Virus record (IMG/VR): IMGVR_UViG_3300029288_000131
Coordinates: 1-64,000 of that record
Source: a virus
Taxonomy: Duplodnaviria; Caudoviricetes
DNA: 64,000 nt
Reading direction: 5' to 3' (one strand)
The translations under genes and the position numbers were made by a program. Position 1 is the stretch's first letter; every line of letters starts with the position of its first letter. Shown in pieces: positions 787 to 59,576 of the stretch. The notes under the pieces were generated by a model. The model saw only the letters and a list, made by a program, of their open reading frames with translations. It searched no databases and was not told where the DNA came from.

Positions 787-1404
787 ATGATGAAAGCTGT
801 TGAATTGCTCGACCGTCCCATCCCTTCCCGCGACCTCGCGAAGGAACTGGGCATGAGCACCCGCCAGATCCGCAAGGCTCGTGTTGCGAGGCAATGTGGC
901 ATCCCGTGCCAAGCACTCGACAACGTCGCTGCCGCTGGCGAAGTCGAACTGTCCGCCGACCTGAAGATCGCTGAGGTGGAGCAGAGCCAACGTGTTGCCA
1001 TCCAGTCGGCACACCGTCGCGCTGGTCAGCTCTACTCGGCATGGAGGGAGTTCGTCAACTTCGAGCGGTCCGAGATGTTCGTCCGAATCAACCAGACGAG
1101 CGAAGAGGACCGTGAGCATTGGGGCGATGCTTTCCGAGACGAGTTCGAGGCTCTCAAGACGAACGAGTTGGTCGTGAAGGAGATGGCCCGCCTGTTCATC
1201 GTCGCTTGCGACGAGTGCTCGCGACTCGGTGTCCCGTATCCGGTCACGAAGGACTGGAAGAGGTATCGGGACATCCAGAGCGGTCAGAAGAGCAAGCCCA
1301 GGCACAAGAAGGGCAGCGACGACCTCCACGGGCATCACAAGCCTTCGCATCAGCAGTTGGTCGAAGCCGTCGGTGACGTCATTGACAGGGCTCGCATGGG
1401 ATGA
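787..1404 (+). CDS. hypothetical protein with N-terminal HTH-like segment
   Basis: PSRDLAKELGMSTRQIRK; AAAGGAG RBS. Confidence 0.6.
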   Translation: MMKAVELLDRPIPSRDLAKELGMSTRQIRKARVARQCGIPCQALDNVAAAGEVELSADLKIAEVEQSQRVAIQSAHRRAGQLYSAWREFVNFERSEMFVRINQTSEEDREHWGDAFRDEFEALKTNELVVKEMARLFIVACDECSRLGVPYPVTKDWKRYRDIQSGQKSKPRHKKGSDDLHGHHKPSHQQLVEAVGDVIDRARMG

Positions 1405-2297
1405 CCCTGACCGACTTGCTTGACCAGTGTCACGTACCCTACCACCTTGCCGGACATCGACACGTCCGGCAAGGGTGGGTCGGTATCGACTGCCCTCAAT
1501 GCGGGCCACGATCAGGCAAGTTCCATCTTGGCATCAACGTAGACGGGCTGTTCGCCGTCTGCTGGAAGTGCGGGTACCTGAGGCTCGGGGACGTGCTGGT
1601 TGAGATTACGGGCAACCCCCTCCCCGAGGTCCTGGGTTGGCTAAACACCCTCCCACGTGCCCGTCCTTCGTCTGTGGCGGGCCCCAAGGCCAGGGGGCGG
1701 GTAAAACTACCCCCTGGCCTTGGGCCGCTACAACGGCCCCACAAACGCTACCTCATGGGGCGGAAGGGGCTGAGACCCTCCGACGTAGAACGGCTGTGGG
1801 GCATCCAGGGCATCGGTAGTTTGGGTGGACGGCTGTCGTGGCGTATCTGGATTCCGATTCATTACTGCGGGGAGCTCGTCAGTTGGACCACCCGTGCTCT
1901 TGTTGATAGTGGTGTTAGGTACTTGACGGCTGGGATGGAGCAAGAGAAGATCAATCACAAGCAACTACTCTACGGTGCCGACTACGCCAGGAACAGCGTG
2001 ATCGTCACCGAGGGACCGATAGATGCATGGCGAATAGGACCAGGAGCCGTTGCCACGCTGGGCTTGGGATTCACGCAAGAGCAAGCAAGACAGATCGGGC
2101 AGTTTCCTCTACGGGTAATTTGCTTCGACAACGAGCGAGACGCTCAACGTCGAGCACATCGTTTGGCAAAAGCGTTGCAGGTGATGCCAGGAGAAACGGT
2201 AGTCATCAGAATCGAAACCGGAGAGGACATTGCGGATGCCGACCAAGAGGAGGTTGAACAGCTAAGAAATGAATTCTTAGAATCCGTTTGGAGCTAA
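1401..2297 (+). CDS. dnaG: DNA primase (Zn ribbon + TOPRIM)
   Basis: CPQC...CWKC zinc ribbon; VIVTEGPIDA, CFDNE and DIAD TOPRIM acidic motifs. Confidence 0.9.
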   Translation: MTLTDLLDQCHVPYHLAGHRHVRQGWVGIDCPQCGPRSGKFHLGINVDGLFAVCWKCGYLRLGDVLVEITGNPLPEVLGWLNTLPRARPSSVAGPKARGRVKLPPGLGPLQRPHKRYLMGRKGLRPSDVERLWGIQGIGSLGGRLSWRIWIPIHYCGELVSWTTRALVDSGVRYLTAGMEQEKINHKQLLYGADYARNSVIVTEGPIDAWRIGPGAVATLGLGFTQEQARQIGQFPLRVICFDNERDAQRRAHRLAKALQVMPGETVVIRIETGEDIADADQEEVEQLRNEFLESVWS

Positions 2298-2320
2298 AAG
2301 GGGTATCGGGTATAATAGGG
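2281..2320 (+). promoter_or_regulatory. sigma70-like phage promoter P1
   Basis: TTGGAG (2288-2293)-17 nt-TATAAT (2311-2316); AATCCRTTTGGAGCTA shared with copies near 35702 and 54385. Confidence 0.75.
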
Positions 2321-2453
2321 CCCGGTTTGGGTGGGTTGGATGGAGTCAATACCGACGTCGAGTGGTGCCCGACGTCTAAGGAAAAGCGGTTATGAAAAGA
2401 GCGATCAACAAAACAGTTCGGTCCTTGGCCCTCGCTCTTGGCCATAACCGCTT

Positions 2454-2496
2454 GAGGCAGCCCCGGGCACCAATCCTGGGCTGCCTCTTTTCTTTT
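2454..2496 (+). terminator. intrinsic terminator / attenuator in P1 leader
   Basis: 10-bp stem GAGGCAGCCC/GGGCTGCCTC followed by TTTTCTTTT. Confidence 0.75.
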
Positions 2497-2503
2497 CTAT
2501 TCT

Positions 2504-2881
2504 ATGGGGGACCATGTCGTGAGCGATGAGAAGTTCCAAGGGTTCGTTGGGCCGAAGCAGAACTGGTTTCGGATGCCGGCCGACTGGATCGACGTTTGCT
2601 CTAAAATCTCCAAGATCACTACGATGAAGGTGGTCGAATATGTTCTAAAACATACGTGGGGATGCAACGAACCGAAGCAGTGGAAGCTCATCACCACGTA
2701 TGAATTCATGTTCGGACTGAAACTGAAGGACGGGACACGTGTCGACAGGGGAACGGGACTGAGCAGCGAAGGGGTCAGGACGGGCATTAAAGACGCCGTG
2801 GACAACGGCCTGTTGGGAGAAATGATCGTCGGCCAAGACGGAGCAAGTATCAAGAAGTTCTATCGGTATCTGGGAGGCTGA
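2504..2881 (+). CDS. lambda O-like replication protein N-terminal HTH domain only (start may be GTG 2519)
   Basis: WFRMP...KVVEYVLKHTWG..K and GLSSEGVRTGIKDAVDNGLL resemble Phage_rep_O winged HTH. Confidence 0.65.
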   Translation: MGDHVVSDEKFQGFVGPKQNWFRMPADWIDVCSKISKITTMKVVEYVLKHTWGCNEPKQWKLITTYEFMFGLKLKDGTRVDRGTGLSSEGVRTGIKDAVDNGLLGEMIVGQDGASIKKFYRYLGG

Positions 2882-2885
2882 TGTT

Positions 2886-3728
2886 GTGAAAGAAACACAT
2901 GAGAAGAAGTTTACGGGTTGGTGGATTCCTGCTTACGTGGTAGAACTGCTACAGGACAAAACCATAAGCAAGTCCGAGCTTCTGCTGCTTGGAGCTATTC
3001 ATGGCTTCACGGACAAAGGCAAAGGATGCTACGCATCGAATGAATATCTTGGGAAACTGATCGGTGTCAGTGCGAGTCGAATTGGGTATCTGGTAAATCA
3101 TCTCAAGGAATTAGGACTGGTCAAACAAACCAAGTTTGATGGAAGACATCGGTGGATTATTACGAGATGGGATGTACCACCAAAGGAAATCTCCGACCAA
3201 AACAATGAGGCAGACTCCGTGAAAACAATGACCCTGCCCCCGCGAAAACAACGAGGCAGGGTCAGTGAAAACAATGACCTATTAACCAAGGGTATTAACC
3301 AAGGGGATATACCAAGGGTTCGTAAACGAACCCTTGGGCGGCCTGCGGCCGCAACCGCGGTAGGTTTCAATCTTGACGAATGGACATCCCGTATAGGCAA
3401 GAAGCTCGTCTCGGTCCTGAGGAAGTATGAAAGTGATCTAATATTTCCGTCAGGTAAACGACGACCGGTCACGTCTCAGAAAATGGCAGAGGTAGTGTCA
3501 AAGGTTTGTAAGGTTCGAAAGGTTCCTCGGAAAGAAGTTGATCGAGTCGTTGCATGGTTGAAGGATCACTACGGAGATGAGTTTACACCCAAGATGCACC
3601 GTGCAGATGATCTAGCAGACAACTGGCGTCGGTACGTTGAAGCAATGAGCCGTAGTGCTAATGGAGACGGAGAAGGCCAAGCCATGATCAGCATGGACGA
3701 CTTCTACGCCGAGGAGGAATTGCAGTGA
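2886..3728 (+). CDS. replication initiator protein (winged HTH) containing the origin
   Basis: ELLLLGAI...GCYASNEYLGKLIGVS..RI...VNHLKELGLV; internal iteron array; directly upstream of helicase. Confidence 0.8.
   Translation: MKETHEKKFTGWWIPAYVVELLQDKTISKSELLLLGAIHGFTDKGKGCYASNEYLGKLIGVSASRIGYLVNHLKELGLVKQTKFDGRHRWIITRWDVPPKEISDQNNEADSVKTMTLPPRKQRGRVSENNDLLTKGINQGDIPRVRKRTLGRPAAATAVGFNLDEWTSRIGKKLVSVLRKYESDLIFPSGKRRPVTSQKMAEVVSKVCKVRKVPRKEVDRVVAWLKDHYGDEFTPKMHRADDLADNWRRYVEAMSRSANGDGEGQAMISMDDFYAEEELQ
3199..3337. repeat. putative replication origin: 4 iterons, 3 tandem 13-mers, inverted repeat
   Basis: AAAACAAYGA at 3199, 3222, 3245, 3268 (23-bp period); ATWWACCAAGGG at 3281, 3294, 3307 (13-bp period); CCAAGGGTTCG-TAAA-CGAACCCTTGG at 3312-3337. 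Confidence 0.8.
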
Positions 3729-5116
3729 AGTCGAAACGCTACGAAGGTACAGACCTGCGTCGAGTCCTGTCAGGGATGGTGACTGACAGGACAGTCTGTT
3801 CCCGGATAGCATCCCAATGGCGGGACGGGGGATTGTTTGATGCTCCGTGGGCGAATCTGGTCGGTGATTGGGCAGTCAAGCATTTCACGAAGTACGGGCA
3901 GCCTCCGAACGGCCAGCTTCGAGGGCTGTTCGATGATTGGTCGAAGCGTGCTAATCCTCCGGAAGAGACATTGAGGGGTGTCGAGTCGTTCTTAGAACAT
4001 CTGTCGAACGAACACTCCCAGCAAGAAGCAGCTACCAGTGATTACATCTTGGACGTTGCCGGAAGGTACTTCAATCGCGTCCGGCTGAAGCAAGCGATAG
4101 ACGAGGCCGAGGATGAGCTGGAAAGGAACGATGTTGAATCTGCCAGGTCGAAGCTGACGTCACTGGGACGGGTTGAGTTGGGTGTTGGGGCGTTGATCAA
4201 GCCAGCCGACGATTTCGAGGCATGGGTCAGTGCCTTTGATGAGGAACGGCAGCGCCCGTTAGTTCGCTACCCAGGACGCCTGGACAAGCTGGTTGGACAA
4301 GCATTAGTTCGGGACAGCTTGATTTCATTCATGGGACCAGATAAGTCCTTCAAGAGTTTTTTCATGCTGGACCTTGCTTACCGTGCAATAAAGAACCGTT
4401 GCAGGGTGGCGTTCTTTGAGGTGGGGGATCTTGGGCAGCACGAGGTGTTGCTACGGTTGGGTGAGCGTGCTACGATGATCCCAAGGAAGCCTGGCAGGTA
4501 CAAGTTCCCGACAAGTGTCAGTTGGGACGGGAGCGAGGTCGAGTATGAGACTCGGGTGTTCAAAGAGGGGCTGCAAGATGCCGAGGCGTTCAGGACGTTC
4601 CGCAAGGTGTGTCGTCAACGGGACGTCTTTCGGTTGAGCTGCCATCCGAACAGCAGCATAAGCGTCGGGGGAGTGTTCTCGATCATCAAGGACTGGGAAC
4701 GCGAGTGCTGGGTGCCGGACGTGGTGGTGATTGACTATGCCGACATCTTGGCACCGCCGAGGGGTGTTCGGGAGTCGTTGGATCAGATAGACGAAACGTG
4801 GAAGCAGCTTCGACGGATGTCTCAGGAGCTGCATGCCCTTGTGGTGACTGCGTCCCAAAGCAATGCTGCTGCCTACAAGACCTCTTTGTTGGGTAAGCAT
4901 CACTTCAGCGGACGGAAGACCAAGATAGCTCATGTCAACGGAATGATTGGACTGAATGTCTCTGCCGAGGACCGTGAGAGAGGAGTGACTCGCCTGAACT
5001 GGGTCGTCCGTCGAAGCGGCCGGTACAACGAGAGATCAGCATTCGCCGTGGCTGGATGCTTAGCTGTATCTAATCCGGTGATCAAAGTTTGTGAACCCAA
5101 AAAAATTGAGAAATAG
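3725..5116 (+). CDS. dnaB: DnaB-like (SF4) replicative helicase
   Basis: Walker A variant GPDKSFKS, FFEVGD, Walker B VVVIDYADIL, VVTASQSN, IAHVNGMIGL. Confidence 0.85.
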   Translation: MKSKRYEGTDLRRVLSGMVTDRTVCSRIASQWRDGGLFDAPWANLVGDWAVKHFTKYGQPPNGQLRGLFDDWSKRANPPEETLRGVESFLEHLSNEHSQQEAATSDYILDVAGRYFNRVRLKQAIDEAEDELERNDVESARSKLTSLGRVELGVGALIKPADDFEAWVSAFDEERQRPLVRYPGRLDKLVGQALVRDSLISFMGPDKSFKSFFMLDLAYRAIKNRCRVAFFEVGDLGQHEVLLRLGERATMIPRKPGRYKFPTSVSWDGSEVEYETRVFKEGLQDAEAFRTFRKVCRQRDVFRLSCHPNSSISVGGVFSIIKDWERECWVPDVVVIDYADILAPPRGVRESLDQIDETWKQLRRMSQELHALVVTASQSNAAAYKTSLLGKHHFSGRKTKIAHVNGMIGLNVSAEDRERGVTRLNWVVRRSGRYNERSAFAVAGCLAVSNPVIKVCEPKKIEK

Positions 5117-5223
5117 TTGGGGCAATTTTCGGGGGTTCGATGATAATAGAGTGACGCACGAGTTGGGGTCGTGTGACCCTACGGTGATTTTCGTTGGTCC
5201 GTCTTTTCCTGAGGGAGGACAAA

Positions 5224-5955
5224 ATGGCTGTGAAGATTTCGAAGGACGACGCCGTTGCTGTGTGCACGGCACTGGGCTGGGCTACTTCGGCCAAGTGGGA
5301 CAAGAAACGGATGCTTCGCAAGCTCAAGGAGGTGGTCGAACTCGCCGAGGAGAACGAGGAGCTGATCGGTGAGGACGTTGTTGAGGATGACGACGAGCGT
5401 GAACGGCTCAACAAGTTGGTCAAGAGGATGGTGAAAGCCAAGGGTGATGTGGATGTCACTCTGACCACCGTCGAGGAGCCGGACGAGGAGGAGGAAACCG
5501 TCGAGGATACCGAGACCGAGACCGAGGACGCCGACGAGGAGGAGGAGGAAGAGGAGGAGGACGAGCCGGCACCGAAGAAGAAGTCTGCCAAGACCAAGAA
5601 GGCTCCGGCCAAGGACGAGGACGAGGACGAGGAGGAAGAGGAGAAGCCCAAGAAGGCGAAGGCGAAGGCCAAGAAGGCTCCGGCCAAGGAGGAGGACGAG
5701 GAGGATGACACCGTTCCGGCCAAGCCGAAGAAGGAGAAGAAGGCGAAGGTGAAGAACGGAGAGGTCGACAAGTTCGGTTCCCGTTTGGGCAGTCAGGCCG
5801 CGACCATCAATGCAGCTTTGTCGAAGAAGGCAAAGTCATTTGAGGCGATTGCCAAGGAAACCGATCTTACAATTGCTCGTGTCAAAGGACATACGAAGTT
5901 CTTGGCCGAGAAGGGAGTCGTCACGATTACGGACGATGGTGTTTCCCTTGTTTGA
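5224..5955 (+). CDS. acidic/Lys block-charged protein with C-terminal winged HTH
   Basis: GGAGG RBS before ATG 5224; poly-E/D and KKAPAK blocks; C-terminal SFEAIAKETDLTIARVKGHTKFLAEKG. Confidence 0.75.
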   Translation: MAVKISKDDAVAVCTALGWATSAKWDKKRMLRKLKEVVELAEENEELIGEDVVEDDDERERLNKLVKRMVKAKGDVDVTLTTVEEPDEEEETVEDTETETEDADEEEEEEEEDEPAPKKKSAKTKKAPAKDEDEDEEEEEKPKKAKAKAKKAPAKEEDEEDDTVPAKPKKEKKAKVKNGEVDKFGSRLGSQAATINAALSKKAKSFEAIAKETDLTIARVKGHTKFLAEKGVVTITDDGVSLV

Positions 5956-5964
5956 TTAGCTGAC

Positions 5965-6008
5965 ACACGATCCTCTTGTGCGAAGCTGTTTCGCACAAGA
6001 GGTCGTGT
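5965..6008 (+). promoter_or_regulatory. long hairpin upstream of queD operon
   Basis: Perfect 13-bp stem CCTCTTGTGCGAA/TTCGCACAAGAGG extended by ACACGA/TCGTGT. Confidence 0.6.
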
Positions 6009-6031
6009 CTGTTTCGATCGGAGGAGAAGAG

Positions 6032-6466
6032 ATGCGAATAATCTACAAGCACTCATTCGATGCTGCCCACCGCTTGTTCGGATACAACGGTCTTTGCAAG
6101 AACCTCCACGGGCATCGGTATGTCGTGGAGTTTGTTCTTGAGGGAGAGAAGCTAGACAGTCTTGGTATGTTGGTCGACTTTGGAGTGTTGAAGAAGATAC
6201 TTGGTGGCTGGATCGATAGGTGGTGGGATCATGCTGTCTTATACAATGCTGCTGGTGATTTACAGATGTTGGCTGCTCTTGGTAAGATCGACGGGGGCTC
6301 CCGTCGATTTGGATTCAGTGAGAATCCAACGGCCGAGAATATGGCCAAGCATCTCTTGGCAATTGGGGATCAGTTGCTAAGGGAGGCAATTCCACATCCC
6401 AGCTACTCATTGGTGGCAGTGCGGGTTTGGGAGACACCGGACCGCGCAGCGGAGGCTACGAAATGA
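6032..6466 (+). CDS. queD: 6-carboxytetrahydropterin synthase
   Basis: FDAAHRL..YNGLCKNLHGHRY, GMLVDF, ENPTAEN, VWET; GGAGGAG RBS. Confidence 0.93.
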   Translation: MRIIYKHSFDAAHRLFGYNGLCKNLHGHRYVVEFVLEGEKLDSLGMLVDFGVLKKILGGWIDRWWDHAVLYNAAGDLQMLAALGKIDGGSRRFGFSENPTAENMAKHLLAIGDQLLREAIPHPSYSLVAVRVWETPDRAAEATK

Positions 6467-7086
6467 AATACAGCATCAACGAAATCTTCTACTCCATTCA
6501 AGGAGAGGGAATGAACGCTGGACGGCCGGCAATCTTCGTTCGCTTCTCTGGGTGCAATCTCAAGTGTGTTCTCGCCGAGCAGGGGTTCGATTGTGACACG
6601 AACTTCGAACGTGGGAGTCTAATGACTTTGGAGTCGATTGAGGACGCAGCATGGCGGGAGTTTGGTGGTCAGCCGGGTTCCGATCCTGCGTGGCCAAATG
6701 GCTTGCTGATGGTGTTGACGGGAGGGGAGCCCTCACTACAGCTTGACAGGCATTTCTTGAGCTACTTCCAAAGCCGTGGATTTGAGGTAGCAATTGAGAC
6801 GAACGGCACGAGACCGCTTCCAGAGGGGTTGAATTGGATTTGTGTTAGCCCGAAGCGGGGGACGGAGATTGTTGTACGATTCGCTGATGAAGTGAAGTAT
6901 GTCTTAGCTGCTGGACAGGAGCCTTGGAACGTTCCCAATCTTGGGAGCACTTGGCAATTGATCAGTCCGGCATTCAAGGGACTACAGCCAGATGATGAAG
7001 CAATCAAGTGGTGTTTGGAGTACGTGAAAAGGAATCCACAGTATCGGTTGTCAATTCAGTTGCACAAGATCATAGGTGTAAGATGA
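6463..7086 (+). CDS. queE: 7-carboxy-7-deazaguanine synthase (radical SAM)
   Basis: EIFYSIQGEG, FVRFSGCNLKC...CDT, LTGGEP, IETNGT, VSPK, RLSIQLHK. Confidence 0.95.
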   Translation: MKYSINEIFYSIQGEGMNAGRPAIFVRFSGCNLKCVLAEQGFDCDTNFERGSLMTLESIEDAAWREFGGQPGSDPAWPNGLLMVLTGGEPSLQLDRHFLSYFQSRGFEVAIETNGTRPLPEGLNWICVSPKRGTEIVVRFADEVKYVLAAGQEPWNVPNLGSTWQLISPAFKGLQPDDEAIKWCLEYVKRNPQYRLSIQLHKIIGVR

Positions 7087-7958
7087 TGTTGAAACTATCA
7101 TGGAATGATGTTCGTGCGAGGGCTTCTGTCGTTCTCTCGCAGATGAGGGCAAGTCACTTACCAACGCCTCGGCCAAAGGTCTATCCAGTACCGCGGGGTG
7201 GGATTTACGCGGCTTTGTTGCTTGGTGAATGTGTGGAGGTAGTAGAGCATTTCGAAAGGGCCGATTGCTGCATCGATGACATCATCGACACGGGCAAAAC
7301 CAAGGAACAATTCTTGGACAAGCCATTCTTCGCATTGGTGGATAAGCTGACCGAGCAATTGGATGGTTGGGTGGAGTTTCCTTGGGAACGAATGAGCAAC
7401 GAGCAGGGACCAGAGGAAAGCATCCGTCGGATCATTGAGTTCATTGGAGATGACCCAAATCGTGAGGGATTGCTCAAGACACCGCAGCGGGTAGTTCGAT
7501 CATATAGCGAATTGTTCTCTGGTTATGGCAAGGAGCCGGCGGATGTGATTACGGTGTTTGAGGACGGTGCCTGTGACGAGATGGTGATTGTGCGAGGAGT
7601 GGAGTTCGTCTCGTTCTGCGAGCATCATATGTTGCCGTTCATTGGTACGGCTCATATTGCGTACGTCCCGGACAAGCGAGTGATTGGGGTATCCAAGTTG
7701 GTGAGGCTGCTTGAAATCTATGCTCGTCGGTTACAGATTCAGGAGCGTCTGTGTCAACAGGTGACGAAGGCATTGGACAAGCACTTGAAGCCGAAGGGAT
7801 CTGCTTGTGTTGTGATGGCAAAGCATCTTTGCATGTCATGCCGTGGTGTTGGAAAACAACACTCGGAAATGGTAACATCAAGTCTTACTGGATCTTTTTT
7901 GAAGTCGCCTGAAGCTCGTGGAGAGCTTTTCAGTTTGATTCAAGGAGCATTGAGATGA
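7083..7958 (+). CDS. folE: fusion: purine phosphoribosyltransferase-like domain + GTP cyclohydrolase I
   Basis: N-term VPRGG, IDDIIDTGKT, WVEFPWE (gpt-like); C-term REGLLKTPQRV, SFCEHHMLPF, GVSKL, RLQIQERL, HLCMSCRG. Confidence 0.92.
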   Translation: MMLKLSWNDVRARASVVLSQMRASHLPTPRPKVYPVPRGGIYAALLLGECVEVVEHFERADCCIDDIIDTGKTKEQFLDKPFFALVDKLTEQLDGWVEFPWERMSNEQGPEESIRRIIEFIGDDPNREGLLKTPQRVVRSYSELFSGYGKEPADVITVFEDGACDEMVIVRGVEFVSFCEHHMLPFIGTAHIAYVPDKRVIGVSKLVRLLEIYARRLQIQERLCQQVTKALDKHLKPKGSACVVMAKHLCMSCRGVGKQHSEMVTSSLTGSFLKSPEARGELFSLIQGALR

Positions 7959-8728
7959 GAAAGGTGGTTTGGATTACCACGCAATTTGAAGCGTTTCATC
8001 GATGGCTACATGCACCTGACGATGTGAGTTTTCTGCGAGACTTTCATCGTCATGTTTTTCATGTGAGACTCGAAGTCCTTGTCTCGGGAAGTGATCGCGA
8101 AGTTGAGTTTATACAACTCAAACATCGGGTTGATAACTATATCGGTCTCCATTTCGAGAATAAGTGTATGGAACGGTCGTGTGAGATGATTGCACAGACT
8201 CTTTTGGAGGAGTTCAATGCGGTTGTGGTGGCGGTGTCCGAAGATGGAGAGAATGGAGCTACGGTTTCTCGACCGTGTTCAATGATTGCTCGTGACAAGG
8301 TTTTCGTGGGGATTGAAGCGGAGGGACCTCATCGTGGTAAGTGTACTCTATTTGTCCCAGGTTGCGTAACTCCTTCAAGATTGGGTGCAGTTGTTGGCGG
8401 TGGAAAGCTTGAGCTCTATGAGGTAGAGCATGTTTACTACGGTGCAGGGTGGGATCATGCCTTGTCTTATCACACCTTACTCTATCTTAGGGATTCACTG
8501 AAGTTGCCAACTACGGTTGAGGGGGATCATCTCGATAGGTTTGGCGACATCTTTCAGAAATGGGAGGGACTCACTGCTGTGTCTGTGAAGGATGCAGGCA
8601 AGCTGAATTTGTGTCATTACACGAAACGGATTGAGGGAAGTCTTATAATATGGAGTGGCAAAGAGGGGACGTTTGTTACTTCGATTCACGACCCGTTATT
8701 TGATGGCGACTTTGTTGTGGAGGACTAG
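7955..8728 (+). CDS. dpdL: DpdL-like T-fold protein (putative CDG decarboxylase) fused to an unknown C-terminal domain
   Basis: LRDFHRHVF fits the LxxxHRHxF signature as I recall it; REVEF, SCEMIA, VSEDGENGA; extra ~150 aa after residue ~105. Confidence 0.7.
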   Translation: MRKVVWITTQFEAFHRWLHAPDDVSFLRDFHRHVFHVRLEVLVSGSDREVEFIQLKHRVDNYIGLHFENKCMERSCEMIAQTLLEEFNAVVVAVSEDGENGATVSRPCSMIARDKVFVGIEAEGPHRGKCTLFVPGCVTPSRLGAVVGGGKLELYEVEHVYYGAGWDHALSYHTLLYLRDSLKLPTTVEGDHLDRFGDIFQKWEGLTAVSVKDAGKLNLCHYTKRIEGSLIIWSGKEGTFVTSIHDPLFDGDFVVED

Positions 8729-48937: not shown

Positions 48938-50563
48938 ATGAACGCTCTCACAAAGGCGTTCGACAGTCAGCGGTCCCTGATAGCTACCGTTCGAGATGAT
49001 GCCGTGCGTCTGAAAGCGTCCGGCGTCTTGAGCGGACAAGTAGGATCGTCCATGCTTGGTGAGATGGGCAGCATGATGCAGAACCAAGCCAAGTATCAAT
49101 CCAAGTACGCTTTGTTTCGAGGGTGGATTTACTCGGCCGTTCATGCCATAGCAGATGCTGCGGCTGGGCAGCCGGTCAGCTTGGCTCGATTGAAGAAGGT
49201 CCCGAAGAACGGGGATGTTCCGAAGCGGTCGAAGGCTTATCAGTTGAACAAGATGCCCAACTCGATAAGGGCCAAGGCCATCCAGCATGAGATGGACATG
49301 CTGGAAGATCATCCTTTGGTTGCAACATTGGAATCGCCCAACCCGTTTCAGGATCGTTGTCACTTCACCTACACGTTTGTTGCCAATCTGGCATTGACGG
49401 GGTGGGCTTACGTGGTGAGGGACAAGACTAAGGATGGTAAGCATCAGTTCATCTGCCTGCCCACCACTTGGATCACCCCGAAACACGAGAAGGGACCGTT
49501 TTCAAAGTTCGTGGTTAGGAACCCCCAGAACCCGAACGTCAAGGGAGAAGAGTTAGATAGGTCTCAGGTGGCGTTTGCTCACCTGCCCAACCCGTCCGAT
49601 CCGTTGAGTGCCATGTCCCCTGCTGGTGCTCAAATCACCAGCATTAGAATTGACGACCACATCCAGACTTGCCAGGAGCAGTTCTTTTATAACGGAGTGT
49701 TCCCGTCTGTGATTATCACGATGGGAAAGAATCCTGATCCTGACATGCCCGGTGGGGGCAACCGTCCCATGCTGACCCCCGCCCAGAGAAGGCAGGTCAA
49801 CGCTGTCATTCGCAAGACGTGGGCGGGTGTTCATAACTACGGCAACCCTGCAATCATTGATGCCTCGATCGAGAGAATCGAACGGTTGGGAGCTACCCAG
49901 AACGAGATCGGATGGGAGAAGTCCGAGATGACCGTGCGGACTCGCATCCTGTCCAGTTATGGAGTACATCCCTTCATCCTCGGCGAGACGATGCCTGGAA
50001 GCTATGCCCAGGCTAGCATTGTTGAGGGTCGGTTCTATCGCAGAGTGAACGGCTACTTGGAGATGTTGTCGAACCTGATGACGAACTTCATCAGGCAGAT
50101 TGAGGATGAGGATAGTGAAGATTTGCTTGCTTGGTGGGAGAAGTTGGAGTCACGGGATCAGGGACTCTACTATCAAAACATGCGAGAGGCTCGGAAGACG
50201 GGTGACATCACGAAGAACGAGTACCGTGCTATCCTTGGGTTCCCTCCGGCAGAGGATGAGGAAGAAGAGGAGGCAGCTCCCATCGGGCAGAGCTTGTTCG
50301 GTGGGATCATTCAATTGATTGCTCAGATAGGGCAAGGCAACATTGACCCCACTCAAGGCGAAGCACTGCTGGTAGGACTCGGTGTGCCGAAGAAGGTGGC
50401 CGAAAAGGTGTCGGGCATCGGCATCAAGCGGGAGCAGCAAGTCCAGCAAGAGCAGGAAGTGGTCGAGGATGCTGTTGAGGAGCTGAAGAGAGCTTTGGTT
50501 GAGTTGAAGGTGTCACCGTCCGAATTGGCTAATCGGATCGAACGGGAGTGCTTGGTAGGATGA
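48938..50563 (+). CDS. portal protein (HK97-like)
   Basis: WIYSAVHAIA, LLESPNP-like TLESPNPFQ, NLALTGWAY, FFYNGVFPS, ILSSYGVHP, ITKNEYRAILGFPP. Confidence 0.9.
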   Translation: MNALTKAFDSQRSLIATVRDDAVRLKASGVLSGQVGSSMLGEMGSMMQNQAKYQSKYALFRGWIYSAVHAIADAAAGQPVSLARLKKVPKNGDVPKRSKAYQLNKMPNSIRAKAIQHEMDMLEDHPLVATLESPNPFQDRCHFTYTFVANLALTGWAYVVRDKTKDGKHQFICLPTTWITPKHEKGPFSKFVVRNPQNPNVKGEELDRSQVAFAHLPNPSDPLSAMSPAGAQITSIRIDDHIQTCQEQFFYNGVFPSVIITMGKNPDPDMPGGGNRPMLTPAQRRQVNAVIRKTWAGVHNYGNPAIIDASIERIERLGATQNEIGWEKSEMTVRTRILSSYGVHPFILGETMPGSYAQASIVEGRFYRRVNGYLEMLSNLMTNFIRQIEDEDSEDLLAWWEKLESRDQGLYYQNMREARKTGDITKNEYRAILGFPPAEDEEEEEAAPIGQSLFGGIIQLIAQIGQGNIDPTQGEALLVGLGVPKKVAEKVSGIGIKREQQVQQEQEVVEDAVEELKRALVELKVSPSELANRIERECLVG

Positions 50564-51927
50564 ACCGCCTAGAACTAGCTAAGCAGGTGGTCAACTCAGC
50601 GACGCTAGCTGTTCGTCTCAAGCAGCGTCAGATGGCTCCCACTCTGCGACGTGCCACTCAACGCCTCTTGCACTTGAAGGAGTTCAAGCGAACCGAGGAG
50701 GAGTTGGCGGAAGTCATTGCTCCTGTGATTCGGGAGGAGGTGAAGTCGATAGTCAGCGGGTTGTTTGAGATGGACGGGAAGTCCATCACCTCCACCAAGT
50801 CCTACGAAGACAACGCTCACACCCTCGTCTCCCAGGTGTTCAACGCCCGTGAATGGCACGACCGTCTGATAGATAAGATGCTGCCCGTGATGGCCGTGAA
50901 GATGTTGGAAGCTGCCACGGCCGAGATGCTGAGCATGGGTGTCGATCCTCGCAGAAGCAAAGGACGACTGAAGCTGGACGAGAAGTGGAACCCTGCCCAA
51001 CCTCGTGACGAGTTCGGCAGGTGGGCAGGTGGTAGTGGGGGTTTGATGGGACCAGACATAGGAGGTGGTAGTGGTGGACGTAGTGGCAGTGGCATGGTGA
51101 GAGCCAGATACAGGGGAAAGAAGAGGGGATGGACTTTGAAGAACGGCGATCCCCTGCCAGACCACGCTCCGAAGTATATCTCACCAGGATGGCGTGATGT
51201 TCAGGTGGCTTTAGACCCAAATGCAGATACATTAGTGGTGGCTAAGGACTCAAAGGGAAGAGGACAGAGAATATACTCTCAGAATCACAAGATGCGAGCA
51301 GCCGCCGAGAAGTTTGCAAGAACCAATGAGCTTCGTCAAAAGATAATGAAGATAGAGCAGGAAATTGAGAAGGATACAAAGAGCAAAGACCCTGCCATTC
51401 GAGAAGCTTCTGCTTGCCTACGACTCATCAACGAGACGGGCATCCGTCCTGGCAGTAGTAGAGACACACGAGCTGAGAAGCAGGCGTATGGTGCTACTAC
51501 GTTAGAAGGACGGCATGTAAAGGTGTTGAAGGATGGGGTGCATTTAAGGTTCGTTGGAAAGAAGGGTGTCGATTTGGACATCCCTGTAACGAACGGGAAG
51601 ATCGCATCCGACCTGATACGCCGTGCTAAGAGTGCTGGTAGGAGAGGCAAGTTGTTTGATACCACTCAGAACAGGGTTCTTGCTTACTCGAAGTCGAAGG
51701 ACGGGGGTGGTTTCAAGACAAAGGACTTTCGCACGGCCAGGGGAACGACCGTAGCAATCAAGACAATGAGGGGAATGCGTAAACCGAAGACAGAACAAGA
51801 ATACAAGGAAGCTGTCAAGCAGGTGGCGACGGCAGTGTCGAAGAAATTGGGAAACACGCCGACAGTGGCATTACAAAGCTACATTGATCCGACCGTGTTT
51901 GGCAAGTGGAGAGTGGAGGGAGAATGA
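50560..51927 (+). CDS. MuF-like minor head protein N-terminal half fused to type IB topoisomerase
   Basis: Helical N-term (FNAREW...LP), KWNPAQPRDEFGRW, Gly linker, then GIRPG (R), FVGKKG (K), KDFRT (R), LGNT (N), SYIDP (Tyr). Confidence 0.88.
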   Translation: MNRLELAKQVVNSATLAVRLKQRQMAPTLRRATQRLLHLKEFKRTEEELAEVIAPVIREEVKSIVSGLFEMDGKSITSTKSYEDNAHTLVSQVFNAREWHDRLIDKMLPVMAVKMLEAATAEMLSMGVDPRRSKGRLKLDEKWNPAQPRDEFGRWAGGSGGLMGPDIGGGSGGRSGSGMVRARYRGKKRGWTLKNGDPLPDHAPKYISPGWRDVQVALDPNADTLVVAKDSKGRGQRIYSQNHKMRAAAEKFARTNELRQKIMKIEQEIEKDTKSKDPAIREASACLRLINETGIRPGSSRDTRAEKQAYGATTLEGRHVKVLKDGVHLRFVGKKGVDLDIPVTNGKIASDLIRRAKSAGRRGKLFDTTQNRVLAYSKSKDGGGFKTKDFRTARGTTVAIKTMRGMRKPKTEQEYKEAVKQVATAVSKKLGNTPTVALQSYIDPTVFGKWRVEGE

Positions 51928-52112
51928 TGCCTGAAATCTACGACGACGACCAAGACGTCTATTTCGGAGAGGTAGACAATCCTTTGCCGGATTGGAGAAA
52001 GAGCAAGTCCCTGATCGACGAGGAAGATCCCGACGACGAGTTGCTGGACGAGACACCCGAAGACGTAGTGGCGCTGCTAGGGTTCGATCCACTTGAGGAA
52101 TGGAACGACTGA
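51924..52112 (+). CDS. 62-aa acidic protein coupled to the TopIB fusion
   Basis: ATGA and TGATG overlaps; PDWR..DEEDPDDELLDETPEDVVALLGFDP. Confidence 0.7.
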   Translation: MMPEIYDDDQDVYFGEVDNPLPDWRKSKSLIDEEDPDDELLDETPEDVVALLGFDPLEEWND

Positions 52113-52810
52113 TGCCTTCGACAGCAACGCAGTGGTTGACCGAAAATCCTGGAGATCTAGCAGCACTGGACGAGTTGCTTCAGACTGCTGGAGTGCCTAT
52201 TCAACTGCTGATGGAGTACCCGCAGTGGATGAAAGAAGCTATTGCTGAGCAACTGGTCGATACGTTTTCTCAAGACTACTGGTACAACATAAGCGAGACG
52301 ACGGGAGGGGATGCCGAGCGCATACTCCGTGAGGGATTGGAAGAAGGGTGGTCGATACGAAGAATGGCCACGGAGCTGCAGCAATCGTTGGGTGGAGATG
52401 CTTATGCCAGAACGAGGGCTAGAAACATAGCTAGAACTGAATCGGGACATGCATTGAACGGTGCCCGTCGTGCCGGGATGGATTCGTTGGTCGATGAGAT
52501 AGGACAGCAAGTCCCCATGAAACCGACTTGGATGAGTGTCTTGGGAACGACGACAAGGGATAGCCACGCGAACTTGGATGGGGTTCCTGCCGACTCAGAC
52601 GGGATGTGGGAGTTGGCAGGTGTTCGGGTGCCGTGGCCCGGTCACATGGATTTACCTCCGTCTGAGCGTTGCAATTGTCAGTGCTCAATCACGATGGAAT
52701 TCGGGATGAAGGAGAACGAAGCTCAATCTCTGATTGATGAGTATTGGCAACGGGTTCAGTCGATGGAAGCAAGTTTCAAGGGAGACGAGAAAGAAGGACA
52801 ATTACAATGA
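52112..52810 (+). CDS. MuF (gp7-like) C-terminal domain protein
   Basis: RARNIARTE, TW.S...TRDSHANLDG, PG...LPPSERCNCQC. Confidence 0.88.
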   Translation: MPSTATQWLTENPGDLAALDELLQTAGVPIQLLMEYPQWMKEAIAEQLVDTFSQDYWYNISETTGGDAERILREGLEEGWSIRRMATELQQSLGGDAYARTRARNIARTESGHALNGARRAGMDSLVDEIGQQVPMKPTWMSVLGTTTRDSHANLDGVPADSDGMWELAGVRVPWPGHMDLPPSERCNCQCSITMEFGMKENEAQSLIDEYWQRVQSMEASFKGDEKEGQLQ

Positions 52811-54541: not shown

Positions 54542-55237
54542 ATGGCAAAGAATGTTACCTTCTATTTGGGACCGGCAAGTGGACTCCTTGCCACCCGTGT
54601 CTTGACGATCACTCGGATGAGGAGAGCAGGAGATGATTCAGCAATCACTCCTGCTTACAATGCCGATGCCGGTGCTGCTACAACCGTTGTGACGGTTCAG
54701 CTTGCCGACAATCAGATTTGGCAAGCACAGTTGGTTGATACGAATGCCACCGGAGAGGCAAGTGCCCCGGACGTTCTCAATTTCCATACGGGCAGCTTGC
54801 AGTTTCCGGGACCGAGGAGCCATGATAGGTTGCAGATCTTGTCGATGGAGGATCTGTCGTCCAGCTCATCCAGCTCGTCCAGCAGCATGTCGAGTTCGTC
54901 CTGGTCGAGCCAAAGCAGCGGATCGTCCGCCTCTTCCAGTTCTTCGAGTTCCAGCTTGGAGTACAGCTCGTCCAGTTCGTCCAGTTGCACAAGTGAGTCC
55001 AGTTCGTCCTGGTCGAGTCAGTCCAGTTCGTCCTGGTCGAGCCCGTCGAGTGCCAGTAGCCAGAGCACAAGCAGCAGCAGTTCCATTAGCACGTCCAGTT
55101 CAAGTCAGTCGAGTCATAGCTCGTCTAGCTGGTCAAGCAAAAGCAGCTCGTCTAGCTCCAGCAGCTCCAACAGCTCGTCTAGCTCCAGCAGCCAAAGCAC
55201 GAGCCTTTCCAGTTCGTCCTGGTCTAGCCAGCCTTGA
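54542..55237 (+). CDS. poly-Ser protein 2: ~105-aa beta domain + Ser tail
   Basis: First gene after P3; MEDL followed by ~125 aa Ser tract to the C-terminus. Confidence 0.75.
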   Translation: MAKNVTFYLGPASGLLATRVLTITRMRRAGDDSAITPAYNADAGAATTVVTVQLADNQIWQAQLVDTNATGEASAPDVLNFHTGSLQFPGPRSHDRLQILSMEDLSSSSSSSSSSMSSSSWSSQSSGSSASSSSSSSSLEYSSSSSSSCTSESSSSWSSQSSSSWSSPSSASSQSTSSSSSISTSSSSQSSHSSSSWSSKSSSSSSSSSNSSSSSSSQSTSLSSSSWSSQP

Positions 55238-55671: not shown

Positions 55672-55961
55672 TGTTCGTTGGATACGAGCAAATAGCTGCT
55701 GGTCCTGCCGTTCAGACAGCGGACGATTTGACGATTCCAGGCAACGCCACCGGCGTTCTCATCCAAGTGGATACGAACAACATTCGTTACACGATGGACG
55801 GTGCCACCGATCCGACAGCGGCTGGAATTGGTATGTTGTTTGTTGTGAACGAAGCTCCTCAGTTCTTTACGATTGACGACCTGTTGCGGATTCGATTCAT
55901 CCAAGTTGCCGCTGGCGTAGGCAACATGAATCTGCATTATACAGCAGGAAGAAACATATGA
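55668..55961 (+). CDS. small beta-rich structural protein
   Basis: IQVDTNNIRYTMDGATDPT...G, LRIRFI; GGAGG RBS. Confidence 0.65.
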   Translation: MMFVGYEQIAAGPAVQTADDLTIPGNATGVLIQVDTNNIRYTMDGATDPTAAGIGMLFVVNEAPQFFTIDDLLRIRFIQVAAGVGNMNLHYTAGRNI

Positions 55962-57916
55962 ACCAGCGTCAACTGCTCGAAGCAATACGAGCCCGGACCC
56001 AGAAGAAGTCACAGTTTGGTCACGGCATCCTGACTGCCGACCTCTATCTCAAAGGCATGTTGGAGGGGCTGGGATCGGACCTCTGTTATCAATTCGCCAG
56101 CCGGGGGCTGACCAGTTTCGACGACCTGATGAGAAAGGCTGCTCGGACGCTGGTCTACAGCAACCCCGAAATGAAGGTCGAAGAGAAGCTGACGGATGCT
56201 TACAGCAGCTTGCCTCGCGGGACGAAGCTGCCCAAGAACACGCTAATGGTGTTCAAGCATACGTTGACCAGCAGTGCCAAGGATCGAGACGGTGACACGC
56301 TTCACAGCGATGGGGCATCGGTCGATCCCAACATGCTGATGATTTGGCAGCACGTCCACACGATGCCCATCGGCAAGTTCATCGCCATTGCCGAGCAGAA
56401 CACCAAGCACCTGAAGACGTACAGTGCCATCGTCGACATCAACGACTTGAGCCACGACTCGGCTGTGATGGTCGACAACGGAATGGGACGCTTCAGCCAC
56501 GGGTTCCGAGCATTGGAGTTCGTTGAGACGAAGGGTGGACGGGAAGGTGGAGTGGGATTCGACATTCACAAGTTCGAGATCATGGAAGAGTCACTAGTTT
56601 CCGTTCCTGCCAACCCCGACGCTCAGACGGATGAAGTGATTGTTTCGTTGGTCGAACGTGGCAAGTTGACCAGTCCTCTGATGAAAGAATTCAGCAAGTC
56701 CATAAGGGAGCGGATGCCGTTGTCTGTTCCTGTCAAGCTGGATCTCAAAGTGACCGTCAATGGTCAGGAGGTGAAGGATGAGAACAAGTCAAGAAACGGA
56801 GAAGGAGCGGGAGAAAAGGGAAAAGGAACGACCAGCACACCAGCGAAAGCAAATGGAGATAACGAGGACGAAGAGGAAGGTGCCGACAAGAAAGTAGAAT
56901 GCCCCGAGTGCGGTGAGATGGTCAAGCCGGATGAAGATGGAGAATGTCCAGAGTGTGGAGCTAGCATGAAGGAAGAGAAGAAGGGAAAGAAGAACATTAG
57001 CCCGTCTTCGATCCATGCAGGCATGCTTAGTGATTCTTGGGAGTCCATCGAATCCCAACTTCGAGATTCGGTCAAGCATTATCTGATTTCAATGGGGCAC
57101 GTGATTGGAGATACTGATTGGGTTTGGTTGATGGGAACGTACAATGACTTTGCAATTGTTTGTTGTGAAAAAGGAGGCAATCGCGAATTTTATAAGATAG
57201 CGTGGCAATTGAAGGACGGCAAGCCTCAATTTGTAGGAGAGCCAAATCTCGTCGAGGTAAAGATCTCGACGGAGTTGATAGAAAGAGCCAAGCGGTTTCG
57301 TCCTGAGCATGGCAAGCCCTATCCGAACGAGCACGCTGCTCGGATGAACGACCCCGACAAGTATGGAAAGATTCGACGACAGAACGATAAGTTTGGGGAA
57401 GGTATCCACGCCATCTTTGGGGTGCTAGAGGATGGCAAGACAGAGGTGCAGGCCATTCGGTTCGATTCGTCCAAGTTCTCAGAAGAAGAGGCACGTGAAT
57501 GGCTCGAAGAGCATAAGTACAAGCCAGCCAAGTTTGAGCCAGCTAAGGAGGAGAAGAAGAGCGTCAAGCAGGGACGGGTTATCAGTCACTCGAACGAAGC
57601 CAAGATCAAAGACGCCAAGGAAGATGTGGACGAAGCTAGCAAGATGGACATTGCTCGTCCTGCCAAGGCGTTGCTCAAGTCAGCATCTCGTAGCCTCACC
57701 GAGGTGATCGACACGATTGGCAACGAGGGACCAGTCGGAGAAAAGGCAATGACTGTGGAGGATGCGATGGCCAAGGTGCTTGCGGAGGCCAATACCAAGC
57801 AACGCAAGAACATGGCCGACGCCCTGCGGGCAATTGATATGGTGGAGAAGGAAACAATTCGATGCCAAGCCAAGCGTCGATTGATTTTGCGAATGAACAC
57901 ATCACGGCGGTCGTGA
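55958..57916 (+). CDS. prohead protease (HK97-type) fused to Zn ribbon and further domains
   Basis: DRDGD, WQH...PIGK, FSHGF, EESLVSVPAN; CPECG..CPECG; PYPNEHAAR...FEPA domain. Confidence 0.85.
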   Translation: MNQRQLLEAIRARTQKKSQFGHGILTADLYLKGMLEGLGSDLCYQFASRGLTSFDDLMRKAARTLVYSNPEMKVEEKLTDAYSSLPRGTKLPKNTLMVFKHTLTSSAKDRDGDTLHSDGASVDPNMLMIWQHVHTMPIGKFIAIAEQNTKHLKTYSAIVDINDLSHDSAVMVDNGMGRFSHGFRALEFVETKGGREGGVGFDIHKFEIMEESLVSVPANPDAQTDEVIVSLVERGKLTSPLMKEFSKSIRERMPLSVPVKLDLKVTVNGQEVKDENKSRNGEGAGEKGKGTTSTPAKANGDNEDEEEGADKKVECPECGEMVKPDEDGECPECGASMKEEKKGKKNISPSSIHAGMLSDSWESIESQLRDSVKHYLISMGHVIGDTDWVWLMGTYNDFAIVCCEKGGNREFYKIAWQLKDGKPQFVGEPNLVEVKISTELIERAKRFRPEHGKPYPNEHAARMNDPDKYGKIRRQNDKFGEGIHAIFGVLEDGKTEVQAIRFDSSKFSEEEAREWLEEHKYKPAKFEPAKEEKKSVKQGRVISHSNEAKIKDAKEDVDEASKMDIARPAKALLKSASRSLTEVIDTIGNEGPVGEKAMTVEDAMAKVLAEANTKQRKNMADALRAIDMVEKETIRCQAKRRLILRMNTSRRS

Positions 57917-57956: not shown

Positions 57957-59576
57957 ATGAAGATGACGGAAGCCTTTAAGAAGTGGCTTGTCGAGAACTG
58001 CGGCGTCAAGTCCGACGCGGCAGAAGACGAGCTGCGAGCGGCCGCCGGTAAGGCGTTTGCTGACGGCAAACTGACGGCCGAGAAGTACATGGAGCTGACC
58101 AAGGATGAAGACGACGATCTGACCAAGGAGTTCAAGCGGATGAACGACAACTTGGAGAAGGCCGTTGCAGCTCTGTCCACTCCTCCCGAAAAGAAGGAGG
58201 AGAAGAAAGAGGAGAAGAAGGAAGAGCCCACCGGCGAGAAGAAGATTGGGGACCTTCCCGACAGGAAGCAGCCGGCCCCGCCGACCGTGCTGGAAAAGAT
58301 GGTCGCTCGGCTCGGTGGCACTCCTATCGAACCAGAGGGTAAGACCATCGACGTCCGGGTCAAGGAAGCGGCCGAGATGTATACCGACACCAAGTCCGTT
58401 GCGGTCTTTCCGGCCAAGACGGCGAAGGGTCGGGCACATCCACGTGCTGGTCAGCCCATCATGGATTACGATGAGGGTGGCCGTGTGATCAACACGCCGA
58501 GTCAACGGGACAAGGCTGTGATCGGTGCCTTCTCCAAGTTCCTTTGTGCCAAGGCTCAGCGTGGTGGAAGTCGAACATTCGGTTTCCAGGCGATGAACCA
58601 GCACGACAAGGAACTGCTACTCTATGCAATGGAGAACATGGAGTGGGTCGGAGCGTCCGACGGCGGCAATTACGCCGACATCAACGGCCGTAAGTTGACC
58701 ACGATGGAAAAGCAAGCTCTGATCGACGACGCCGTGTCGGGCGGTTTGGAAGCGGCTCCCATCGTGTTTGACGACGACGTGATTCAGGCACCGCTGCTCA
58801 ACGGAGAGCTGTACCCGCACGTCAAGGTCGTTCCCCTGGATCGTGGACGTCGGGTTGAGGGTGTTGCCACTGGCACCGTCACCGCCGCGTGGGGCGGTGT
58901 TGACGACACGGCAGTTGCCCTGTTCAACACAGCAGCCTACGTCACGGCATTCGATACGACCATCTTTCGTTGGGAAGGCTCCATTCGTATCGGGTTGGAC
59001 TTCCTGTCCGACACGCCCATCGACTTCGGTGCTCACGTCACCGCCCAGTATGGCGAACGCCTGCTGGAAGACCTGGACGACGTGATTGCCACGGGCAACG
59101 GCACGACGCAGCCGACGGGCATCATGAATGCTGCGGGCACGACAGCCGTTGCTTTTGGTGGTGCCACCAGCCTTGGAGCTTACGAGCAGCTTCGCTTCGG
59201 CGTTGCAAAGCAGGAGCACAAGGGTGGGGTCGGTGCCAGTGCCGTGTTCTGTGGAACCGAGACCTCGTACATGAGGGCTCGGGCGTTGAACGTCGGTGCC
59301 ACCGATGCTCGTCGCATCATGGGGTACGACTACTCCAGCTACAACTGGATGGAACGTCCCTACAAGATCAACAACAGCCTGACCAACCGCCAGATCTTCT
59401 ACGCGATCATGGCTCGCTATCGCATGTATCGTCGGCGTGGGTTGACCATGCGAACGAGCACCGAGGGCGACACCCTGATCCGCCGGAACGAGATGCTGAT
59501 GGTTGCGATGGCCCGTTATGGTGGCCAGCTCGAGCGCGGAGCTTGTGCTGCCGTCACCACGACCGCCCCTGCGTAA
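57957..59576 (+). CDS. major capsid protein (HK97 fold)
   Basis: Coiled-coil N-terminus, GGLEAAP..F, GNGTTQPTGI, RYGG; strong codon bias; after protease. Confidence 0.88.
   Translation: MKMTEAFKKWLVENCGVKSDAAEDELRAAAGKAFADGKLTAEKYMELTKDEDDDLTKEFKRMNDNLEKAVAALSTPPEKKEEKKEEKKEEPTGEKKIGDLPDRKQPAPPTVLEKMVARLGGTPIEPEGKTIDVRVKEAAEMYTDTKSVAVFPAKTAKGRAHPRAGQPIMDYDEGGRVINTPSQRDKAVIGAFSKFLCAKAQRGGSRTFGFQAMNQHDKELLLYAMENMEWVGASDGGNYADINGRKLTTMEKQALIDDAVSGGLEAAPIVFDDDVIQAPLLNGELYPHVKVVPLDRGRRVEGVATGTVTAAWGGVDDTAVALFNTAAYVTAFDTTIFRWEGSIRIGLDFLSDTPIDFGAHVTAQYGERLLEDLDDVIATGNGTTQPTGIMNAAGTTAVAFGGATSLGAYEQLRFGVAKQEHKGGVGASAVFCGTETSYMRARALNVGATDARRIMGYDYSSYNWMERPYKINNSLTNRQIFYAIMARYRMYRRRGLTMRTSTEGDTLIRRNEMLMVAMARYGGQLERGACAAVTTTAPA

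Follow-up and report, generated by a model that had tools for sequence, protein, structure and literature searches.

A type IB topoisomerase and an acidic partner encoded between the two halves of a MuF head protein gene in an uncultured tailed phage

The portal-proximal locus and its divided MuF gene

The stretch of DNA analysed here (the window, 64,000 nucleotides) covers positions 1 to 64,000 of an IMG/VR virus record (IMGVR_UViG_3300029288_000131; Duplodnaviria, Caudoviricetes) that is 89,174 bp long and estimated to be 94% complete. Nearly all long open reading frames (ORFs) of the window are on the + strand. Directly downstream of the portal protein gene, as at the loci of MuF proteins such as SPP1 gp7, are three genes (ORF2, ORF3 and ORF4) in which a MuF minor head protein is divided by a type IB topoisomerase (TopIB) domain and a small acidic ORF. 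A first-pass annotation, made from the sequence alone, had described a MuF-like protein split by a topoisomerase, and all of its elements lie where it placed them:

48938..50563, + strand: portal protein gene (PF04860, 1.8e-25; phrog_2662 and phrog_12); its stop and the start of ORF2 share ATGA at 50560
50560-51927, + strand: ORF2, starting at ATG 50560; helical MuF half, motif, Gly-rich linker and TopIB
50560..50964, + strand: N-terminal helical half of MuF, ORF2 residues 1-135 (hhalign 99.8%)
50983..51024, + strand: linker motif KWNPAQPRDEFGRW, a putative delimiter between modules; the same motif class precedes cargo domains
51025..51099, + strand: Gly-rich linker with MGPDIGGG (PD[TI]GGG is common to P0005, P0007, P0013 and P0016)
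51100..51927, + strand: type IB topoisomerase, probably with both domains, at the end of the polypeptide (PF01028; match to PDB 2f4q; catalytic pentad)
51924..52112, + strand: ORF3, starting at ATG 51924; 62-amino-acid (aa) acidic partner of TopIB
52112..52810, + strand: ORF4, starting at ATG 52112; MuF core domain as a gene of its own

Judged from their overlaps, the portal gene and ORF2, ORF3 and ORF4 are translationally coupled. The stop of ORF2 and the start of ORF3 share ATGA at 51924, with GGAGGGAGA upstream, and the stop of ORF3 overlaps the start of ORF4 as TGATG at 52112. The start assigned to ORF4 agrees with the MPSTA../MPTTA.. starts of its relatives P0016 and P0030.

When compared with a profile built from 25 ordinary full-length MuF proteins, the two outer pieces of the locus fall on either side of a single break. 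ORF2 residues 1-135 correspond to profile columns 3-135 (hhalign 99.8%, E 2.7e-28, 35% identity), and ORF4 residues 3-221 to columns 143-361 (E 1.2e-92). ORF4 also matches PF04233 at 44.1 bits (cut-off 29.6), while TIGR01641 scores 19 bits, under its cut-off. The first-pass annotation had read the beginning of ORF2 as a MuF N-terminus and ORF4 as the missing C-terminal domain, and would have had to be abandoned if the N-terminal part were unrelated to MuF; these alignments establish both assignments. The two halves are therefore not on one polypeptide but in separate genes, ORF2 (1-135) and ORF4, and from the profile coordinates the MuF gene has been cut cleanly, with nothing lost and nothing duplicated.

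An AlphaFold2 model of an ordinary full-length MuF protein (P0152; mean predicted local distance difference test score, pLDDT, 82; predicted template modelling score 0.79) indicates where the break falls. Three long N-terminal helices (2-74, 82-96 and 99-128) are followed by a low-confidence stretch at ~129-170 (pLDDT 52-61), after which comes the core. The break in the window maps to this predicted flexible linker, and a second insertion site, used in relatives (see below), maps to the modelled loop at 75-81. Structure searches with the full-length model were not informative: Foldseek gave no useful match to solved structures, and VIA-align wide found generic helical bundles only (best Z 7.9). 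In a profile search of the PDB, MuF gave only a weak match, to the portal 8qqn (E 0.095). Some of the helical-bundle matches cover helices of both halves, a faint hint that the halves may pack together.

The topoisomerase, its partner and the slot they occupy

The C-terminal part of ORF2 has the sequence features of an apparently complete TopIB, with all catalytic residues intact, and is predicted to be active. PF01028 is matched at 82.9 bits (cut-off 23.7; 84.8 bits in a second scan), and the protein aligns with the TopIB of D. radiodurans (2f4q, 5.4e-16) over chain residues 34-298, the match to the poxvirus enzyme (2h7f, 9e-8) being weaker. The catalytic pentad was located from the 2f4q alignment:

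51445-51447, + strand: Arg codon
51559-51561, + strand: Lys codon
51730-51732, + strand: second Arg codon
51853-51855, + strand: Asn codon
51880-51882, + strand: Tyr codon

These positions align with R137, K174, R239, N280 and Y289 in the numbering of 2f4q. All five residues are unchanged in 30/30 phage relatives aligned, so the TopIB core with the full R-K-R-N-Y set recognized in the first-pass annotation holds, and the tyrosine codon is the same one. As to the small N-terminal beta domain that precedes the catalytic domain in such enzymes, the alignment to 2f4q begins at chain residue 34; the family PF21338, recorded in many relatives, was not reported for the window protein at E up to 0.1. 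The fold was tested on a relative that is 46% identical to the window protein (L044), not on the window protein itself; the model matches variola TopIB 3igc in Foldseek (9e-12; template modelling scores 0.63/0.67), while tyrosine recombinases match it only at E above 0.06.

TopIB is strongly basic, with a computed charge of +29 and an isoelectric point (pI) of 10.3. The product of ORF3 is its opposite: 62 aa with a net charge of -20 and a pI of 4.05. Conserved elements in this small protein are LPDVHFG, DWR, DPDDELL and TP.DVVA.LGFDP. Scanning viral contigs with the partner alone recovered TopIB immediately upstream, or fused, in 40/40 loci. With TopIB alone as the query, the partner was found directly downstream in 69/80 loci and one gene further in 8/80; of the remainder, two loci have no partner and one has no room for it. 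Relatives of the partner directly follow TopIB whether the latter is carried on the helical half or behind the core, and on this linkage the acidic ORF is assigned to TopIB and not to MuF.

The partner has no match in Pfam, PHROG, NCBIfam or the PDB and no Atlas family. Alone, it is modelled as disordered (ESM Atlas pLDDT 0.30). In the model of L044, a natural TopIB-partner fusion, the TopIB part is confident and partner residues 276-319 are below pLDDT 50, while the last 20 partner residues (TP.DVVAMLGFDP) reach 75-81. The partner is fused to the C-terminus of TopIB in some relatives (L041, L043, L044, L090 and P0097), and is sometimes fused instead to the N-terminus of the next protein, which may be a pentapeptide-repeat protein, DUF2213, a zincin, DUF6098 or MuF. 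This pattern is compatible with a TopIB-binding peptide, which might serve as inhibitor, chaperone or tether. In the TopIB-partner fusions L044, L043 and L041 the sequence around the catalytic lysine is FVPGKKHGQ, against FVGKKGV in the other TopIB proteins. At another locus (L013:3968-5560) the protein encoded directly behind TopIB joins a partner module to a long stretch of pentapeptide repeats (PF00805, 3e-41), a protein class known for DNA mimicry directed at topoisomerases.

TopIB nearly always ends its chain because its catalytic tyrosine is only ~15 residues from the C-terminus; in 119/125 relatives the domain stops 10 residues or fewer from the end of the protein. This provides an explanation for the divided MuF gene. 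A TopIB placed between the MuF halves brings a stop codon with it, and MuF must then be made as two chains. Where TopIB comes after the MuF core the protein is unbroken, as in P0006 (helical half, core, linker, TopIB) and in P0016 and P0030 (core, linker, TopIB).

To see what else occupies this position, an exhaustive HMMER search was carried out with ORF2 residues 1-162, giving 184 representatives, of which the best 150 were mapped for modules. Among these 150, the MuF core lies further along the same protein in ~95, and in many it directly adjoins the helical half, e.g. P0152, P0155 and P0156, which are ordinary MuF proteins of ~350 aa. Some helical halves stand alone as proteins of 130-160 aa. 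Inserts occur between helical half and core (P0127, P0157, P0175) and within the helical half (P0123, P0124, P0001). The cargo found on the helical half, or behind an NP.QPRD..GRW / NPYHD..GRF motif, includes ADP-ribosyltransferase, GNAT, PARP/Tpt1-like, DUF3626 and PI3/4-kinase-like domains, and in P0129 an ADP-ribosyltransferase is found in an architecture identical to that of ORF2. The motif is not confined to this position: giant multi-domain proteins (P0231, P0243, P0258) contain it five to seven times, and in many relatives TopIB is preceded by looser variants (HPRDEDGKF, HLPGQHNQ.SHG, GHAGRPGEVGGS). The order of motif and Gly linker in ORF2 given in the first-pass annotation is correct, and the survey of KWNP.QPRD..GRW-type motifs that it suggested did turn up other cargo in the same slots. 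Its placing of a swappable slot after the PRD..GRW motif needs revision, since the slot appears to be the flexible linker between the MuF halves, with the motif acting as a general delimiter between modules. A role of the motif in processing or docking is possible, and the MGPDIGGG element of the Gly linker may be a processing site.

Recurrence of the arrangement in other phages

TopIB relatives are encoded in 265 viral contig stretches. The order portal, helical half-TopIB, partner, MuF core recurs in at least 5 other uncultured phages, with 43-50% identity to ORF2. It is seen in L001 (P0005) and L002/L003 (P0019), and in L048 with a 450-aa insert. In L004, a variant, the core is part of a protein of 868 aa that also has HD and ART-PolyVal domains. 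One locus (L052, 1389-8060) has MuF cut at both insertion sites, in the following order:

1389-8060: first helix + cargo (556 aa), rest of helical half + TopIB (589 aa), partner, core + further domain (841 aa)

Members of the same TopIB family are also fused to the portal (L042 and PF06381-bearing relatives), fused behind the MuF core (P0006, P0016, P0030), or located next to ADP-ribosyltransferase or NUDIX domains, and many are stand-alone proteins of 300-350 aa. One clade of the TopIB tree mixes helical-half-attached and core-attached forms (Shimodaira-Hasegawa-like approximate likelihood ratio test, SH-aLRT, 92), a sign that the cassette may have moved from one slot to another. At a further locus (L005:1207-7797), a row of cargo genes lies between the portal and the MuF core-TopIB gene:

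1207-7797: ADP-ribosyltransferase protein (405 aa), 45-aa ORF, helical half + unknown domain (345 aa), unknown 284-aa protein

In bacterial genome contigs the partner scan gave only 4 loci, all in metagenome-assembled genomes (MAGs), which pointed to no cultured host, and one of these has TopIB upstream. At one of the 4, in a deltaproteobacterial MAG contig (L123:2500-5150), an array of clustered regularly interspaced short palindromic repeats (CRISPR) with >34 repeats (GACCGAAAAGACCTGATTTAAGAAGGGATTGCGAC) runs into a partner-like coding sequence that has no TopIB upstream. Either a phage remnant or a join made in assembly, through a spacer, could account for this junction.

The head module of the window continues downstream of ORF4 with two further recognizable genes:

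55958-57916: prohead protease-like gene
57957-59576: HK97-type major capsid gene (PF05065)

The first of these encodes a 652-aa protein that combines a weak match to prohead protease S78 with a zinc ribbon and a plant BRX motif, the latter above threshold (PF08381, 27.6 bits, cut-off 24.5), an odd mixture for a head gene. Another protein of the head operon (54542-55237) consists almost entirely of serine in its C-terminal two-thirds; the first-pass annotation had also counted it among a set of Ser-rich virion proteins. Across the whole record there is no second TopIB (PF01028) and no type IIA topoisomerase (PF00521), nor is there a tyrosine integrase of family PF00589; serine integrases were not searched.

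Interpretation and comparison with known systems

The simplest reading of these relationships is that TopIB is a passenger of the virion, delivered with the DNA. Because it sits inside a minor head protein gene, TopIB is probably packed in the virus head, and virion association is the simplest reading since this TopIB is found fused to portal, MuF core and helical half alike. The favoured picture is of a two-gene cassette, TopIB and its acidic partner, located in the linker between the MuF halves, with the packaged enzyme delivered along with the DNA and controlled by the partner, and its probability is put at about 60%. The stop codon of the cassette would yield two chains, one of helical half, linker and TopIB, and the other of the core. 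The MuF pieces would then re-associate, or each would dock at the portal, and in either way a few copies of active TopIB would be taken into the head. SPP1 gp7 is a MuF protein of which the portal brings a few copies into the procapsid interior, and which supports the start of infection (PMC6316719); cargo fused to MuF has been proposed to be injected (PMC5512222, PMC5576092). On exit with the DNA, early in infection, the enzyme might relax the incoming genome or act on it at the portal. The model for such early relaxation would be the virion TopIB of poxviruses. The disordered acidic partner would bind the very basic TopIB and either prevent its contact with DNA inside the producing cell or chaperone it.

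Several observations weigh against this picture. All relatives come from uncultured phages, and the tree support for slot switching (92) is under 95. Three of the 4 bacterial MAG loci have the partner module with no TopIB upstream. The fusions of the partner, whether at the TopIB C-terminus or at the N-terminal end of the head protein that follows, fit a tether as well as an inhibitor.

A delivered enzyme could also be imagined as a weapon, TopIB being an effector or toxin directed at the host chromosome (by nicking, trapped covalent complexes, or a global relaxation that shuts off the host) and the acidic ORF its immunity protein. The tight linkage of the partner to TopIB and the ADP-ribosyltransferases in the same slots would suit this idea, as would the small ORF (<150 aa), a proposed immunity gene, that usually follows MuF toxins (PMC5576092). 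However, the pentad is complete, of the kind competent for religation, and invariant, the partner is sometimes in one chain with TopIB, which would be odd for an immunity protein, and the 94%-complete record has no tyrosine integrase, whereas MuF toxins have been described for temperate phages; an effector is accordingly considered unlikely. If the enzyme acted inside the particle and not after entry, it could be a swivel at the portal that releases torsional stress during packaging or ejection. MuF sits at the portal (PMC6316719), and the portal-TopIB fusions (L042 and the PF06381-bearing relatives) put the enzyme at the DNA channel, but MuF/gp7 copies are few, and a nick with covalently bound protein on translocating DNA could stall the motor. 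A swivel of this kind seems quite unlikely.

TopIB might be an ordinary cytoplasmic enzyme of replication or transcription that happens to be encoded in the head module, with MuF broken and its helical half a remnant. Such an origin would agree with the many stand-alone relatives and with the lack of any other type IB or type IIA topoisomerase (PF01028, PF00521) in the record. A remnant, however, would not be expected to stay intact and conserved in several diverged lineages, as the helical half has (35% identity to the profile, 99.8%), nor are the coupled genes in keeping with it, and if TopIB had no link to the virion, its repeated, independent fusion to portal, MuF core and helical half would be difficult to account for, all of which makes it very unlikely. 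The joining of ORF2 to ORF4 into one protein, by programmed frameshifting or by protein or RNA splicing, was also considered: the three ORFs are in successive -1 frames, and natural in-frame TopIB-partner fusions exist elsewhere. It was rejected, and is scarcely credible: Shine-Dalgarno-like sequences accompany the ATGA and TGATG junctions, which lack a slippery heptamer, neither a Hint nor an intein domain turned up, and the genes are likewise separate in relatives. Coupling of the three genes, together with their separation in relatives, makes splicing and frameshifting unnecessary.

The passenger reading can be extended to a bolder and decidedly tentative scenario, in which many uncultured tailed phages, forming one large lineage, would bring active TopIB into the head on MuF or the portal. 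The two-piece MuF would reassemble, the intrinsically disordered partner would be a DNA-mimicking safety catch until displaced by DNA, and the enzyme would act on the phage genome as a swivel at entry. The lineage itself might be the undiscovered viral TopIB group postulated in the literature (PMC2647321). In their 2009 review, Forterre and Gadelle list no viral TopIB outside poxviruses and mimivirus, and propose a "not yet discovered" viral group as the source of the bacterial enzymes (PMC2647321).

Among the papers searched, none describes a phage TopIB on MuF or portal, and TopIB is not listed in the two main surveys of MuF cargo (PMC5512222, PMC5576092). The cassette is common, as the 265 contig stretches attest, and its obligate partner belongs to no known family. 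MuF is shown to tolerate cuts at defined loops for cargo. The questions raised concern the delivery of a topoisomerase by a phage along with its DNA, the effect of the partner on TopIB, and a possible origin of bacterial TopIB from phages. The pair could also serve as a small, regulated relaxing enzyme.

Among known systems, the locus resembles the poxvirus enzymes (variola/vaccinia; PDB 3igc, 2h7f, 1a41) in having a small TopIB, probably of two domains, with an identical pentad, and the model of the phage relative superposes on the DNA-bound variola structure. Poxvirus TopIB is carried in the virus particle. The window enzyme differs in being closer in sequence to bacterial TopIB (2f4q 5e-16 vs 2h7f 9e-8), and its loading would go through MuF and portal; in poxviruses no acidic partner gene is known to us. 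The TopIB of D. radiodurans (2f4q/3m4a) is the best sequence match, with both domains apparently covered and Asn in the pentad, but in bacteria the enzyme is a cellular protein that stands on its own, unfused to MuF or portal, and it too is not known to have an acidic partner.

Closer in organization are the MuF polymorphic toxins (Jamet et al. 2017, PMC5576092). As with these and with SPP1 gp7, the gene lies right after the portal and has a PF04233 core; the cargo is again on a MuF scaffold behind a linker, and a small ORF (62 aa, <150 aa) directly follows it. Unlike the toxins, MuF is here in two chains, the cargo is attached to the helical half and precedes the core, rather than being on the C-terminus of the same protein, and it is a topoisomerase, a word with 0 mentions in that survey. 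There is also no sign of the temperate lifestyle of the toxin-bearing phages (by the PF00589 search; serine integrases not searched). The polyvalent proteins (Iyer et al. 2017, PMC5512222) are likewise modular effector chains joined to MuF or portal, with proposed delivery alongside the DNA and the same neighbouring cargo (ADP-ribosyltransferase, GNAT, NUDIX, zincin). TopIB is not among their domains ("topoisomerase" appears only in a reference title), and the chain in the window is broken into coupled genes and includes an obligate acidic partner. Cargo enzymes that ride into host cells on MuF or portal are known from such systems; the cut MuF, and the explanation of the cut, are new.

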